A stretch of 39,326 nucleotides of DNA from a virus (taxonomy: Duplodnaviria; Caudoviricetes). Location: the IMG/VR virus record IMGVR_UViG_3300009095_000033, positions 1 through 39,326 of that record. One strand, 5' to 3'. The position numbers and the translations under genes were made by a program. Shown here in pieces: positions 3,195 through 36,389 of the stretch. Within the stretch, counting starts at the first letter, position 1, and every line of letters begins with the position of its first letter. The notes beneath the pieces are model-generated. The model was not told the DNA's origin and made no database searches. It saw only the letters and a list, made by a program, of their open reading frames with translations.

Positions 3195-3578
3195 TCAGAG
3201 GTCGATGAGCTGGAGCGCGCGCAGCACTGCGCCGACGGTGCGGACGAACAGATCGTCTTTGGCGCGCTGCGCCGGCGGCAGCTCATCGTATGGCACGAGG
3301 CACGGGTGCGTCTTCTTCCCCGGGTCTTTGTCGGGCCCGTACGTCCAGCCGTGCTCGAGCTTGTGCCGCATCCAGCTCGCGTGACTCTCACGCGGCCCGT
3401 TACCAGCGATGACGCCGGCGACGCCCTCACGGCAGCTCGCGCGCTGCCACTCGGGCGCGCCCTCCCACGGCGGCTGGGACGCGTCGCCAATCGCAAGGCA
3501 GTAGGCGCGATTGACCTCGTGCGCTGCTCGCGCCGCGGCCTCGACCACGCTCGCGGAAATCTCCGGTGCCTCACTCAT
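3195..3578 (-). CDS. RyR domain-containing protein
   Basis: HASWMRHKLEHGWTYGPDKDPGKKTHPCLVPYDELPPAQRAKD matches the RyR-domain signature. Confidence 0.85.
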   Translation of the reverse strand: MSEAPEISASVVEAAARAAHEVNRAYCLAIGDASQPPWEGAPEWQRASCREGVAGVIAGNGPRESHASWMRHKLEHGWTYGPDKDPGKKTHPCLVPYDELPPAQRAKDDLFVRTVGAVLRALQLIDL

Positions 3579-3754
3579 TCGCTCCCAGCTTGCCCGAACC
3601 GCCGCCAGAGCGCCACAGAAGCCCCGCAATCGCCCCTGACCTAGCCTGGGCCCAGTGGCCTCTTGCCGCCAGCCGCGAGGTCAATGGCCCGGTGCGCGAG
3701 CTGCCCCCTCGCTCCTACCTGCCCCGTTCCCGCCGCCCCCTTCGACCACCGCAA

Positions 3755-3770
3755 GCTTCCACGTGAAACA
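3755..3770. promoter_or_regulatory. parS-like site
   Basis: GCTTCCACGTGAAACA is 14/16 to the consensus TGTTNCACGTGAAACA, in non-coding DNA. Confidence 0.5.
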
Positions 3771-4035
3771 CTGGCGATCACCCTCGCTCCCAGCTCGAAC
3801 AATGGCGCCTAACCTACCGATATCGCTAGGCTTATCGCCACTTATGCACTCAGCTTGACGTGTGTGCGTCGTTCACACCTGCGGGCTTTCGAGCGGGGCC
3901 CCGGGCACCCCTGGGGGGATGCCCCTACCCCAAGGAAGGGGTACACCCCTCACGGACATTCTGAAGATTCTGAATGAATCCGCCTAGTCGCACGGGCGCC
4001 TTGCAAAGGCCTCTGCGGGGTGCGACCGTGGTCAC

Positions 4036-4242
4036 ATGAGAGGACGAAGGAAGGTGAAGCGGACGCACTGGGGCCTGGAGCTTCTGAAGCCCGACGAGGC
4101 GAAGGCGCGCAGGGAACGCTACGAGGCCTTGAAGGCCCTGGGGGCATCAGGGCTGGTGGCGTGGAGGGAGTCCATTACGAGGGGCTCCTACTGGAAGATG
4201 CGCGACAGGATGGTGGCTGCTTCCGGGAAACCCACACTTTAG
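4036..4242 (+). CDS. small basic hypothetical protein
   Basis: 68-aa ORF; alternative GTG start at 4054 after GAAGGAAG. Confidence 0.55.
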   Translation: MRGRRKVKRTHWGLELLKPDEAKARRERYEALKALGASGLVAWRESITRGSYWKMRDRMVAASGKPTL

Positions 4243-28408: not shown

Positions 28409-29722
28409 GTGGCGTACATCAGCCACACCGCGAGCGCCACGACCGGGCGCACCGAGACGATCGCGGCCAACTGCGATCTCGTCGTCGTTGCCGTCATCCA
28501 CTTTGGGGAAACAGGCGCCATCGATTGTGAGCTCGGCGGAACGGCGCTCACGCTCGCCACCGACGATAACCCCTACGTCAAGATCTTCTACCGGCTGAAC
28601 CCGGCGGCGGGCGCTCAGACGCTGGACTTCGAGCTGAATCAGATCAGCTCGGTCGTGTGCGCTCAGTACAGCGACATCGAGTCGTTTCAGTCGGCGCAGC
28701 AGGCGAGCGCAGGCAGCGCCAACTACAGCCCGAGTGGCGCCGGGCTCATCGTGCACGCGATCAGCGCGACGAGCGCCGGGACGCCGGTCGCGGACACCAA
28801 CGAGCGCTTCGACGGTGGCACGGGCGAGTGGTACGGCGACCGCATCGTGACGGGCGCCGGCACCGTCAACGTCGGCGCGACGATCAGCGATCCGGACTAC
28901 GCGGGCGCCATCTTCCTGGCGCCATCCGAGGAGCCCGAGGAAGTCGACGCGAGCGGCACCCCGACTGCCGCTGCCCCGACCGCCTCGGGTAGCGCGAGCG
29001 TCGTCGTCTCGAGCTCGGGCGCCTCCACCGCGGCTGCCCCCACCGCCAGCGGGTCAGCGTCGCCCGTTGTGGCGTCAAGCGGCGCCGTAAGCGGGCCCGC
29101 GCCGAGCGCATCAGGAGCGGCGAGCGCGGTCGTCTCTGCCGCCGGGACACTGTCTGCTCTCACCCCTGGGGCCTCCGGCAGCTCCAGCGCGGTCGTGGGT
29201 GCCTCGGGCGCGCCATCCGCGGCGCCGCCCACTGCCACGGGGGCAGCCGAGGGCGAGGCCGTTGACCCGGAGGCATCCGGCTCCGTGTCGGCGCCTGCCC
29301 CTGGTGCCGCGGGCTCAGCGTCGGTCGATGTCGCCGCCAGCGGCTCCACAGTCGCCGCGGCGCCGAGCGCCAGCGCGGGACTGGGCGTAGTGGTCAGCGC
29401 GTCCGGAGCCACCGATGCCATCGCCCCGGGAGCCGCCGGAAGCTCCAGCGTGGTCGTCGGCGCATCGGGTGCAGTGGCGGCCGCTCAACCGATAGCGAGC
29501 GGTTCGGCTGTCGACCCGGACGCATTGGTGTCGCGGCTCAGGGCAACCGCCAGCGCCACCGTCCCCCAGGTCAGCGCGCGCGCCACTCGCGCGGTATCAT
29601 CAGCGGCAGCGGTCTCGACCCAGATCGCAGCGCGCACCACTCGTGCGGTATCATCATCGGCAGCGGTCTCGACCCAGATCGCAGCGTCCACGCCCGGCGG
29701 CGGGAAGCTCTCGGAGGGCTAA
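28409..29722 (+). CDS. tail fibre / adhesin with Ala-Ser-Gly repeat stalk
   Basis: GAGG RBS; beta-rich N-terminal domain, then repeats of VxASGxxxAxAPxAxGS. Confidence 0.7.
   Translation: MAYISHTASATTGRTETIAANCDLVVVAVIHFGETGAIDCELGGTALTLATDDNPYVKIFYRLNPAAGAQTLDFELNQISSVVCAQYSDIESFQSAQQASAGSANYSPSGAGLIVHAISATSAGTPVADTNERFDGGTGEWYGDRIVTGAGTVNVGATISDPDYAGAIFLAPSEEPEEVDASGTPTAAAPTASGSASVVVSSSGASTAAAPTASGSASPVVASSGAVSGPAPSASGAASAVVSAAGTLSALTPGASGSSSAVVGASGAPSAAPPTATGAAEGEAVDPEASGSVSAPAPGAAGSASVDVAASGSTVAAAPSASAGLGVVVSASGATDAIAPGAAGSSSVVVGASGAVAAAQPIASGSAVDPDALVSRLRATASATVPQVSARATRAVSSAAAVSTQIAARTTRAVSSSAAVSTQIAASTPGGGKLSEG
29583..29686 (+). repeat. 54-bp tandem duplication (18 aa)
   Basis: CCACTCG(C/T)GCGGTATCATCA(G/T)CGGCAGCGGTCTCGACCCAGATCGCAGCG at 29583 and 29637. 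Confidence 0.9.
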
Positions 29723-34034: not shown

Positions 34035-34234
34035 GTCGGACCACCAATGTCGGCTGATCTTGGACCGTTGGCCCCGTAGGAGTAGAGGCCGAAATCTGCC
34101 CAATAGCGTCGCCCGTCTCCCAGTTCCACGTATTCCTGCCCCAGCTTGTTCATCGCCGCGCGAGCCTCGAGGCGCCCCTTGTCGCTGTCCAGCGAGAATG
34201 TCTCGTCCCCGATCTTCACCACCGTGCAACTCAT
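34031..34234 (-). CDS. hypothetical protein
   Basis: ATGA-coupled to the sigma factor gene. Confidence 0.65.
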   Translation of the reverse strand: MSCTVVKIGDETFSLDSDKGRLEARAAMNKLGQEYVELGDGRRYWADFGLYSYGANGPRSADIGGPT

Positions 34235-34743
34235 AACGCAACCCTTTCCATCGGCAAACTGTCCCTGATCATCTGAAGGGCAGTCTTCTCTATCATCCGC
34301 GCCCTCTCGCGCGTGAACCCGAATTTCTTCCCCACCTCTTCGAGCGTCATGTCGTGCGCGAACCGCATCCGGATCACATCCTGATATCGCTCAGGCAAAG
34401 CGGCAAGCGCCTTTGTGACTCCAGAGGTCAGCGGCCCCATTTCGCTCGGCTCGGTTTGCTGCTCGGGTGGGAAGTTGTCTTCCCCTTCGCGAAAGACGCC
34501 GTTGGCCCCCACCCGCTTCGGTATCGCGACCGGCGCGATCATGCTGGAAATGTTGCGGTAGGCAGCGCGCTTGACCGCGTAGCCTACCGCGGTGCTCGGC
34601 GCGCACGGCAGCGCGGCCTCGTCGCTCGTGGCGATCCATGACTCCAGCATCGCGTCCTGCACCAGGTCATCCCAGGAATACGACGGTGAGTCAGCCCACC
34701 GATACCGCCGGCACAGGCGCTTCACTAGGCCCTCGTGTTTCAC
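34231..34743 (-). CDS. sigma-70 family RNA polymerase sigma factor
   Basis: Region 2 GLVKRLCRRY...DDLVQDA; region 4 LPERYQDVIRMRF...MTLEEVGKKFGFTRERARMIEKTAL; GTG at 34743. Confidence 0.85.
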   Translation of the reverse strand: MKHEGLVKRLCRRYRWADSPSYSWDDLVQDAMLESWIATSDEAALPCAPSTAVGYAVKRAAYRNISSMIAPVAIPKRVGANGVFREGEDNFPPEQQTEPSEMGPLTSGVTKALAALPERYQDVIRMRFAHDMTLEEVGKKFGFTRERARMIEKTALQMIRDSLPMERVAL

Positions 34744-36389
34744 TGCTCTTCTCCTTCGTCCTTGTGCAGGTCCCCCTTGTGCCAGAGGTCGAGCGCCAGC
34801 CCGAAACGCATGGCGGCGTTCCGCAGCGCGTCGCCGATGACCTCCTTTTCCCGAGCCCCTACGTCCTGGTACGCTTTCTTTTCGGCGTGCCCGTATCCGA
34901 GGCGGGTGACGCCGCAGACCGTCAGGCGAATCCACAGGCCGCCGCTCGCGTCGAACAGCGGTAGCCCCTCCGACGAGAGCGCCGCCGGTTCCCACGTCCA
35001 GCCAGGATCAGCGTCGAGAAGCCGGTCTGTCGTCGCGGCGTGGCCGACGTAGTCCAGGTGGACGATCCGAGGATGGTGCCACCCGCCGCAGATGGTGCAA
35101 TTCCGCTTCTCGTTCGGGGGGCACATGTTCTGTGCCTTGGTGCCCTTCGGGAGCTTGCTGACCAGGTGGTCAGGGAACGGCTCACGAAGCAGAGCCAGGC
35201 CTTCGGGGCGGCGAGTCCGGGTGCCGGCTGTAGGTGCACTTGCCGGCGGCGTGGCAGCCGAGGGGCGAGACGCAGCCGCTGGGGTAGGGGCAGGGGCCCG
35301 GGTCGGCGTAGCGCTCGACGTCGGCTCTGTCGGGCGGCTGGGGGCCGTAGACGTCCCAGCGGTGGGTCTCGGTGTTGTAGCGGTTGGCGTGCGGGTAGCT
35401 GACGCTGATGTCGAAGCAGAGCTGCGCTCCTGGGCTGCCCGTCGCAGGTGCTCGTCGGCTTTTGGGTCAGCGCCGATCAGCGGTGCGGCCGGCGCCGTCA
35501 TCTGCTCGCGCTCCTCGGCCAGCTCCTCGGGCTCGGGCTCCCAGGCCGTCGTCTTGGTTCCTGACTCGGGTGTGCGCCGGTACTCGAGATAGCTCATCGG
35601 GTCGCGCTCGAGCTCGACGTCGGTGCGCAGGGTGGTCAGCTCCAGCCAGCGGTTCAACTCTGCCATCCCCGCCGCGAAGTAGCGCCACTTCGCGTTCGGC
35701 TCTTTCCCCGCTTCCGCCGCTGCGGAGCACGCTGCGGTGCACGCCTCGATCATCGCCTGCGGCGTGCCGTAGGTGTTGATCAGCCACGCAGCGCTCTTCC
35801 ACCCCAGGTTTTTGATGCCCGGGATCGAGTCGCTGTCGTCCCCGTTGATCGCTTGCGCCAGCGCGAACTGGTCGGGTCGCACATCGTACTTCTTGCTCAC
35901 GTACTCGGGCCCACGGGGCTCGTAGCCGTCGCCCGTCGGCACCATGAGCCGCACCGTCTCCGAGACGCACTGGAGCAGGTCCTTGTCCTCTCCTACGATC
36001 CGGATGTCGTCGCACCCCGCCTCGCTGTAGACACGCGCCAGCGTCGCGATCACGTCGTCTGACTCCTGCCCCCTGCATCGCGCGAGCTGGTAGCCGTCCG
36101 CTTCGAGCCTGTCTAGCGTCCAGCGGATGATGTGTCCTTTCGCCGGGTCGCGGTCGCGCAGCTCCTTGTAGCCCTCGAATCGCTGCTTGCGCCAGTAGGG
36201 CGGCCAGTCCAGACAGACGACCACGCGCTCGACGCTGTCTCGCACGCTGGCGATCTGGTCGAGCGTGGCCTGCCCCGCGTCGTTGACCCCGCCGTCCTTG
36301 GCGCGGGCGTGGAAGTGCACGCTCAACAGCGAGCTGAAGTCGACCAGCGCGATTGACGCCGGCATGTCCGGGATGTTCACAGCTTGCAT
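34740..36389 (-). CDS. fusion of a 5'-3' (PolA-N/FEN-like) exonuclease and a Rad52/Sak-like single-strand annealing protein
   Basis: LVDFS, CLD..PYWRKQRFEGYK..R, ESDDVIATL, GEDKDLLQ, GDDSDSIPGIKNLGWKSA; then LREPFP, LDYVGHA.TTDRL, WTWEP, GVTRLGYG, KEVIGDALRNAAMRFGLALDLW. Confidence 0.85.
   Translation of the reverse strand: MQAVNIPDMPASIALVDFSSLLSVHFHARAKDGGVNDAGQATLDQIASVRDSVERVVVCLDWPPYWRKQRFEGYKELRDRDPAKGHIIRWTLDRLEADGYQLARCRGQESDDVIATLARVYSEAGCDDIRIVGEDKDLLQCVSETVRLMVPTGDGYEPRGPEYVSKKYDVRPDQFALAQAINGDDSDSIPGIKNLGWKSAAWLINTYGTPQAMIEACTAACSAAAEAGKEPNAKWRYFAAGMAELNRWLELTTLRTDVELERDPMSYLEYRRTPESGTKTTAWEPEPEELAEEREQMTAPAAPLIGADPKADEHLRRAAQERSSASTSASATRTPTATTPRPTAGTSTAPSRPTEPTSSATPTRAPAPTPAAASRPSAATPPASAPTAGTRTRRPEGLALLREPFPDHLVSKLPKGTKAQNMCPPNEKRNCTICGGWHHPRIVHLDYVGHAATTDRLLDADPGWTWEPAALSSEGLPLFDASGGLWIRLTVCGVTRLGYGHAEKKAYQDVGAREKEVIGDALRNAAMRFGLALDLWHKGDLHKDEGEEQ
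35182..35466 (-). other. candidate -1 programmed frameshift and overprinted 94-codon frame
   Basis: In-frame slippery C_CCA_AAA at 35466-35460 directly after a -1-frame TGA; -1 frame stays open to TGA at 35182 and has no start codon. Confidence 0.5.

Follow-up and report, generated by a model that had tools for sequence, protein, structure and literature searches.

A candidate -1 frameshift site and a cysteine-rich overlapping frame in a phage gene for a fused exonuclease and annealase

Known phage frameshifts are found mostly in head, tail, and chaperone genes. In gene 10 of T3 and T7, the head/tail genes of Lactobacillus phage A2, and lambda G-T, a Pro-Lys or Gly-Lys heptamer near the end of a structural or chaperone gene gives these tailed phages an alternative C-terminus that extends the protein; phage A2 reportedly uses exactly CCCAAAA. 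In Escherichia coli dnaX, which encodes tau and gamma, an in-frame heptamer lies in the middle of the gene, and a shift there leaves a product with the N-terminal enzyme domain and without the C-terminal interaction domain (PMC5009743). The gene considered here resembles both cases. It lies on the minus strand of a 39,326-nucleotide (nt) stretch of tailed-phage DNA, analyzed as a whole and referred to as the window (IMG/VR record IMGVR_UViG_3300009095_000033, positions 1 to 39,326). Its 549 codons (34740..36389) encode a FEN-type 5'-3' exonuclease, a linker rich in Pro, Ala, Ser, and Thr (P/A/S/T), and a Rad52/Sak-like annealase, and a candidate slippery heptamer, C_CCA_AAA, spans the codons for Asp-Pro-Lys (D-P-K) at 35460..35466. 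Whereas dnaX gamma stops one codon past the shift, the new frame here would add 94 residues within the frame-0 linker; in contrast to the structural frameshifts, the gene is a recombination gene, a domain would be removed rather than added, and about 95 codons would be dual-coding.

The pairing of a 5'-3' exonuclease with a single-strand annealase is itself familiar from lambda Exo/Beta, RecE/RecT, and Sak with its exonuclease, and the C-terminal domain here has a Sak/Mgm101-like fold, as in Sak-type recombinases. Unlike those two-component systems, the phage gene is one fused open reading frame (ORF), its nuclease is FEN-type, and in relatives the annealase is swapped (Rad52-like, RecT-like, or AAA_24). 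No frameshift in a phage exonuclease-annealase gene was found in the open-access literature searched, including the accessible parts of PMC5009743, PMC7260188, and PMC4066793. We regard the evidence as evenly balanced on whether real -1 ribosomal frameshifting at C_CCA_AAA makes an exonuclease with a Cys-rich tail. The reading rests on the mild effects of strain changes in the -1 frame, conservation in a diverged relative (L159), and the pairing of heptamers with P/A/S/T stretches (3/3 versus 0/10).

The slippery heptamer and the -1 frame in strains and relatives

The original prediction, made from the letters of the sequence, described the site accurately. CCCAAAA begins at codon position 3 (GAC CCA AAA), forming an in-frame X_XXY_YYZ heptamer of the shift-prone V_VV.A_AA.R class, and a TGA in the -1 frame stands immediately 5' of it. 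The -1 frame then runs for the 94 codons of the quoted peptide, which is exact, and ends at TGA 35184-35182 without an ATG, GTG, or TTG (35182..35466; predicted trans-frame product of 402 amino acids, aa). Also as described, the frame carries a C-x5-C-x5-C-x5-C block (35236..35292, where frame 0 reads ...PSAATPPASA), 73 of 74 consecutive -1 codons end in G or C (58 C, 15 G, 1 A), and frame 0 is unusually A/T-ending (27 of the 74 matching codons versus 56/450 elsewhere in the gene). A second block, block B (35400..35423), reads SSASTSAS in frame 0 and QLC[FL]D[IL]SV in the -1 frame, with rare TCT and TCA codons as in L159. Among the linker's P/A/S/T codons, 25/58 end in A or T, compared with 421/3168 genome-wide and 28/114 in an A/S-rich control gene (P = 0.015), and the Tyr, Cys, and Trp codons of the -1 frame arise from this excess. 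Four-fold sites of -1 codons hold 32 C and 12 G, versus 84 C and 115 G in the gene.

The strain comparison used contigs from 7 of the 22 runs listed, with X12 and X13 being identical and counted once. The overlap contained 28 variable sites and 30 alleles (18 sites at frame-0 position 3, five at position 1, and five at position 2), and 18 of the 30 alleles were silent in frame 0. In the -1 frame, the frame-0-silent changes had a mean BLOSUM62 loss of -4.5, whereas random silent changes gave -6.36, -5.68, and -5.36 when matched by transition/transversion, base pair, and exact change, respectively (P = 0.0009, 0.010, and 0.035). No such mildness was seen in the +1 frame (P 0.45-0.68), and none of the 14 control pairs, drawn from GC-rich genes with a single coding frame, reached the -1 excess under any of the three nulls; the best-supported haplotype alone kept the signal (P 0.001-0.018). 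Two of the 18 observed changes were silent in both frames, versus 4 of 257 possible. None of the 13 T-starting Cys, Tyr, and Trp codons of the -1 frame varied, and sites with a third-position T (T3) varied in 1/18 cases, compared with 8/17 for third-position A (A3; P = 0.007). No heptamer changes were among those listed for X2, X3, and X12/X13, and the sole strain insertion was 6 nt long. Stops in the -1 frame were absent from the strains, though a silent change could create one in only 9 of 257 possible cases. Selection on the -1 frame has modest statistical support and is not proven.

L159 encodes an exonuclease-RecT-type fusion and is the only locus found with a homologous S/T linker. Its exonuclease is identical to that of the phage at 127/268 aligned residues (Met and Trp not counted), and it keeps GAC CCA AAA GCC GAC, so that the heptamer and the 6-nt spacer are identical. 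The L159 -1 frame is open for 104 codons and contains the QLC-D-SV block and C-x6-C-x5-C-x5-C; its three-Cys pattern arose in 0.2-0.6% of resamplings and may be shared with this phage by descent. The linkers were compared in three hand-anchored blocks, the global codon alignment having misplaced the linker. There, A/T-ending codons were common to both loci in 6/11 cases, versus 1/11 in the L159 exonuclease (P = 0.06); over nine relatives, the figure was 4/92. The five A/T-ending codons not shared with L159 are strain-variable sites, and one T is kept in L159 despite a differing frame-0 residue (AGT versus GCT). L159 also has a second in-frame heptamer, A_AAA_AAT, 12 codons past the first and leading into the same -1 frame.

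Motif scans, with 28 of 64 parts of the metagenome set covered, returned 132 matches in 239 sequences; 118 were dropped as unrelated, and 10 distinct family loci plus L031 were obtained. Scans with the proteins P0065 and P0070 revealed no further S/T-linker relatives, and a genome-contig scan (4/64 parts) gave Pol I-like matches only. Among 16 family ORFs, the phage's own included, three contain a stretch in which P/A/S/T make up at least 83%, and each of these has an in-frame heptamer, either at the stretch or no more than about 18 codons upstream of it, compared with 0/10 unrelated P/A/S/T stretches. Among the other 13, heptamers occur within the linker region of L112 (C_CCU_UUC) and L209 and outside it in L036 and L049. 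In L031, G_GGA_AAA, which belongs to the same V_VV.A_AA.R class as C_CCA_AAA, occurs at another place, directly before that gene's own A/T/S/P stretch. Pro-Lys-Ala (P-K-A) falls within -19..+4 of the stretch start in 8/9 strongest-stretch proteins versus 1/60 others, with three of the occurrences at non-homologous places, and these family counts of heptamers and P-K-A are confounded by kinship. Separately, C_CCU_UUC occurs in frame at the E-F-I-P-F motif of L112/L033, and behind it come an A/T3-rich segment and a -1 frame of 59 codons; the same motif in L209 has non-slippery codons.

Composition, stimulators, and the case against frameshifting

Part of the prediction is accounted for by composition alone, and its own caveat, that a P/A/S/T linker makes C-ending -1 codons, was well founded: the G/C-ending run is position 2 of P/A/S/T/R/G codons. 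When the same protein was resampled synonymously, the -1 frame was open for at least 90 codons in 11-36% of cases. Because linker composition yields both, neither the openness nor the run is evidence. The heptamer arose in 1.2% of resamplings with the gene's codon use and in 17% with linker-level use, and the four-Cys pattern, which was defined post hoc, in 0.01-0.26%.

The -1 frame could on this basis be a shadow only, produced by arithmetic from a fast-evolving P/A/S/T tether with weaker codon bias, with CCA AAA an inherited spelling of D-P-K; we consider this rather unlikely. A T ahead of Ala or Thr yields Cys or Tyr in the -1 frame, openness arises in 11-41% of resamplings, the peptide lacks a homologue, and IG.DP[KRNQG]ADE is conserved as protein, in many cases with D-P-R, which is unable to slip. 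Strain variation in frame 0 is of the kind expected, with a ratio of nonsynonymous to synonymous polymorphism (pN/pS) of 0.30, denoting purifying selection, and with 18 of the 28 variable sites at third positions. The A/S-rich control gene, an ORF of 437 aa that includes a long region of A/S/G repeats (28409-29722, plus strand) that served as a control for linker codon use, likewise has third positions raised in A/T and a Cys-rich -1 frame, which contains stops; in L005, moreover, 'ATPPAS' is the shadow of an unrelated gene. A shadow leaves unexplained the milder -1 effect of silent changes, the sparing of T3 relative to A3, the rare codons common with L159, and the L031 heptamer, which lies at another site.

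The 6-nt spacer GCCGAC and candidate 3' stem occupy 35419..35459, with one pair broken in the X2/X3 strain. As claimed, the stem starts after the 6-nt spacer, which is identical in L159; it folds no better than shuffles (z +0.74; six window folds of the region, z -0.48 to +1.46), rising above them in neither this phage nor L159. A pseudoknot was dropped as a candidate, its loop being rewritten in strains X4 and X12. In dnaX, a Shine-Dalgarno (SD) sequence lies upstream of the shift site; by inspection, none is found 10-14 nt before the heptamer in this phage, and L159 has GGTGA about 10 nt upstream. The dnaX gene also has an established 3' stem (PMC5009743), whereas that of this phage gene is a candidate. 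According to PMC4066793, V_VV.A_AA.R heptamers rank with the most efficient classes of -1 motif in E. coli, and heptamers without a stimulator shift at only about 0.3%.

The -1 frame might instead be expressed as a small protein of its own, either from a start that is non-canonical or through stop read-through or transcript slippage, which we consider highly improbable. An AGGAG at 35431-35427 lies upstream of the QLC block, and L159 has a -1-frame GTG four codons before QLC, both of which would suit such a route. The AGGAG and the near-cognate starts ACG (35442) and ATC (35409) are all altered in strains, however, and this phage has no -1 GTG; the TGA before the heptamer is absent from L159. 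An A4 run is also too short for polymerase slippage, which counts against a transcript-level event. As no start is conserved, the heptamer is the only conserved entry to the -1 frame.

Several further observations weigh, together with the weak stem and the lack of an upstream SD, against frameshifting. The overall pN/pS of the -1 frame is 1.08, and several -1 changes in the strains are non-conservative. No part of the gene varies more than the overlap, with 21 of 35 X2 changes plus the 6-nt insertion falling in 285 of 1650 nt (17%); the constraint at synonymous sites that had been anticipated was thus contradicted, synonymous variation in the overlap being raised rather than lowered. The selection signal is weakened by strain contig depths of 2-14 and by variant counts that represent the changes listed; it fell to P = 0.016, 0.09, and 0.25 without two Arg-to-Arg changes and to P = 0.004, 0.065, and 0.20 with PAM250. 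Conservation of the heptamer, another expectation, held for L159 and the strains and failed in 3/4 D-P-K relatives: the D-P-x site is slippery in 1/11 distinct relatives with DNA and in 1/4 with D-P-K. The three non-slippery D-P-K relatives lack an adjoining S/T stretch. Stops in the -1 frame of relatives, which the original prediction had named as counting against it, do occur, with L116 and L031 (both non-slippery D-P-K) closing that frame after 8-10 codons. The -1 tail behind the L031 heptamer has 28 residues and 5 Cys that do not align with the Cys block positions, and the L031 gene is T3-rich throughout (0.12). Pro-Lys with any third residue is found in 13/60 other proteins, kinship confounding the P-K-A count, and this phage and L159 have common ancestry and are not independent.

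Origin of the tail and a possible mechanism

A homology search with the 94-aa peptide had been proposed as a check, and its outcome also speaks against the reading, as no homologue was found. A phmmer search of 1.84 billion representatives gave 10 matches, all repeat proteins with scores summed over repeats (7 inspected). The tail had no match in Pfam, PHROGs, viral contigs, phage tblastn, or the ESM Atlas (recognition 1853 versus 2300 typical of known families), and of the 227 proteins examined, none had the Cys block in its own reading frame. A model of the tail built by AlphaFold from two aligned sequences (pLDDT 55, hairpin 27-40, all Foldseek E above 0.4) was not used as evidence.

A family of stand-alone Cys proteins, FKPCPGCPTPAKC, was rejected as a homologue, its profile scoring 10.2 bits here and 1.0 bit in L159, compared with 49 bits for a member. 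It comprises at least 34 unannotated proteins of the form FKPCPGCPTPAKCKxAGKC (C-x2-C-x5-C-x5-C). Like the tail, they have C-x5-C-x5-C spacing, Pro at +3, and AGxC; unlike it, they have a first spacing of x2, are Lys-rich, and stand alone. The family was reached via a pattern drawn from the tail peptide, so the likeness is circular. One of its genes, about 32 codons long with four Cys and Lys-rich, stands beside a portal-like gene in L239 (2489-2587, minus strand). The pattern matches in L240 and L328 were discarded as chance.

The original prediction had also offered a relic gene captured out of frame, and the simple version of that idea is weakened by frame-0 purifying selection and C-skewed -1 codons. 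In the form considered here, a small Cys-rich -1 gene between nuclease and annealase would have lost its start and be decaying unexpressed, a history we find improbable. Precedents for the arrangement exist: phages with a stand-alone annealase commonly have a small -1-frame gene directly upstream (18 loci read), the frame-0 shadow of such genes is open and P/A/S/T-rich (L005, L018, L019, L022, L029), family linkers capture neighboring modules (CDHKF...C..C in L159 versus P0067 and P0070), and a stand-alone small Cys family exists. Yet an unexpressed frame should not be spared in strains or survive in the diverged L159, the C-skew of the -1 codons is unlike native genes, and the likeness to the small family amounts to 10 bits here and 1 bit in L159 and is circular. 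As for the modules themselves, the small genes that overlap stand-alone annealase starts in L005, L011, L013, and L018-L029 are acidic and Trp-rich; the CDHKF...C..C module begins a gene of its own further downstream in L159 (minus strand, offset 3574-4165) and lies in frame inside the linkers of P0067 and P0070, and P0014 has a different in-frame Cys insert.

Under the frameshift reading too, the tail probably descends from a small gene formerly between nuclease and annealase whose shadow frame was read through; fusion by such read-through would account for the linker as well as for a -1 frame that looks like protein. The A-x5-A-T-[PQ]-x3-A pattern, the frame-0 shadow required by the Cys block, is kept in five relatives.

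Under the frameshift reading, a fraction of ribosomes would slip back one base at C_CCA_AAA, presumably by tandem slippage of tRNA-Pro (CCA to CCC) and tRNA-Lys (AAA to AAA), perhaps helped by the weak stem 6 nt downstream. The product of 308 + 94 = 402 aa would be an intact FEN without the helix, linker, and annealase, bearing a Cys/Tyr-rich tail that ends in a predicted hairpin and four-Cys cluster; the four Cys might bind metal. By analogy with dnaX, labor could be divided, with the fusion resecting and annealing and the annealase-free FEN removing flaps and primers. Of the dnaX-like reading in the original prediction, conservation in L159 and sparing in strains lend support, while the openness, G/C run, stem, lack of a homologue, and D-P-K relatives do not.

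More tentatively, and with some doubt, the scheme may extend to a soil podovirus-like clade, in which frameshifting would give the fusion and a free FEN with an overprinted Cys4 element at a set ratio. The S/T linkers would be dual-coding, the slippery site (P-K or G-K) would have been re-placed at the linker start more than once, and the module would persist through exchange of the annealase (Rad52-like in this phage and RecT-like in L159). From a conserved internal start, the annealase might in addition be made alone.

If true, frameshifting would set the domain make-up of a recombination enzyme, giving a resect-and-anneal protein with its domains tethered and a flap nuclease free of the tether, and a second coding sequence, invisible to gene callers, would span about 95 codons that annotation treats as disordered linker. 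Gene fusion could then preserve a small gene formerly between the partners, and recombineering with natural exonuclease-annealase fusions could give mixed products upon expression. If false, an exonuclease-annealase fusion with a cautionary shadow frame remains.

Domain architecture and genomic setting

The FEN/ExoIX-type exonuclease domain (aa 1-272; 35574..36389, minus strand) matches PF02739 and PF01367 above cut-off, phrog_107, and ExoIX and T5 D15 folds, with the FEN fold present. Nine acidic residues are invariant in alignment A1 (D17, D61, E109, D111, D112, D135, D137, D184, and D187), and the domain is predicted to be common to both products. The annealase domain (aa 395-549; 34740..35207, minus strand) matches phrog_3290 (E 8e-48) and had no Pfam Rad52 match; in fold comparisons, for which the whole-protein model was used and the Z values were middling, it matched Mgm101 (Z 7.8, rmsd 2.9 over 105) and Sak of phage 80a (Z 7.3-7.4). 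It thus has a Rad52-type fold and a single-strand annealing protein profile match, and annealing activity is predicted. Between the two domains lie the conserved frame-0 motif IG[KA]DP[KRN]ADE.LR with a predicted helix (309-325), inside which the heptamer falls (35415..35477, minus strand), and the P/A/S/T linker (aa 327-392; 35214..35411, minus strand), predicted to be disordered (pLDDT under 50).

This fusion is a natural architecture, and its domain order recurs in 42 of the 52 other proteins examined. One has the reverse order (P0044, 439 aa, with the annealase at 8-157 preceding the exonuclease at 176-418), and nine have another C-terminal domain, RecT-like where tested. Exonucleases fused to RecT-like or AAA_24 domains occur in P0045-47, P0057, P0065, P0067, P0070, P0079, and P0134-P0140, suggesting that the annealase has been swapped behind a common linker.

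Upstream of the linker, a candidate internal start comprises GAGGAG, 9 nt, and an ATG (M298; 35499..35516, minus strand), from which a linker-annealase without the nuclease could possibly be made. The same arrangement is present in L159 and absent in L031. An equivalent of M298 occurs in several subclade proteins (E-E-R-x-x-M), where the E-E codons easily spell such an SD.

None of 89 genomes from the order of a Myxococcales metagenome-assembled genome gave a match, and a search of 401 genomes with a loose pattern was uninformative. Near-identical DNA was found in soil, rhizosphere, and mixed-culture metagenomes. The virus record is linear, 39.3 kb long, and 82% complete, and its gene set includes terminase, portal-like, head-closure, virion transglycosylase, and tail-fibre genes. 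Immediately downstream of the exonuclease-annealase ORF lies a sigma-factor-like gene (34234-34743, minus strand), the start of which overlaps the end of that ORF by 4 nt.

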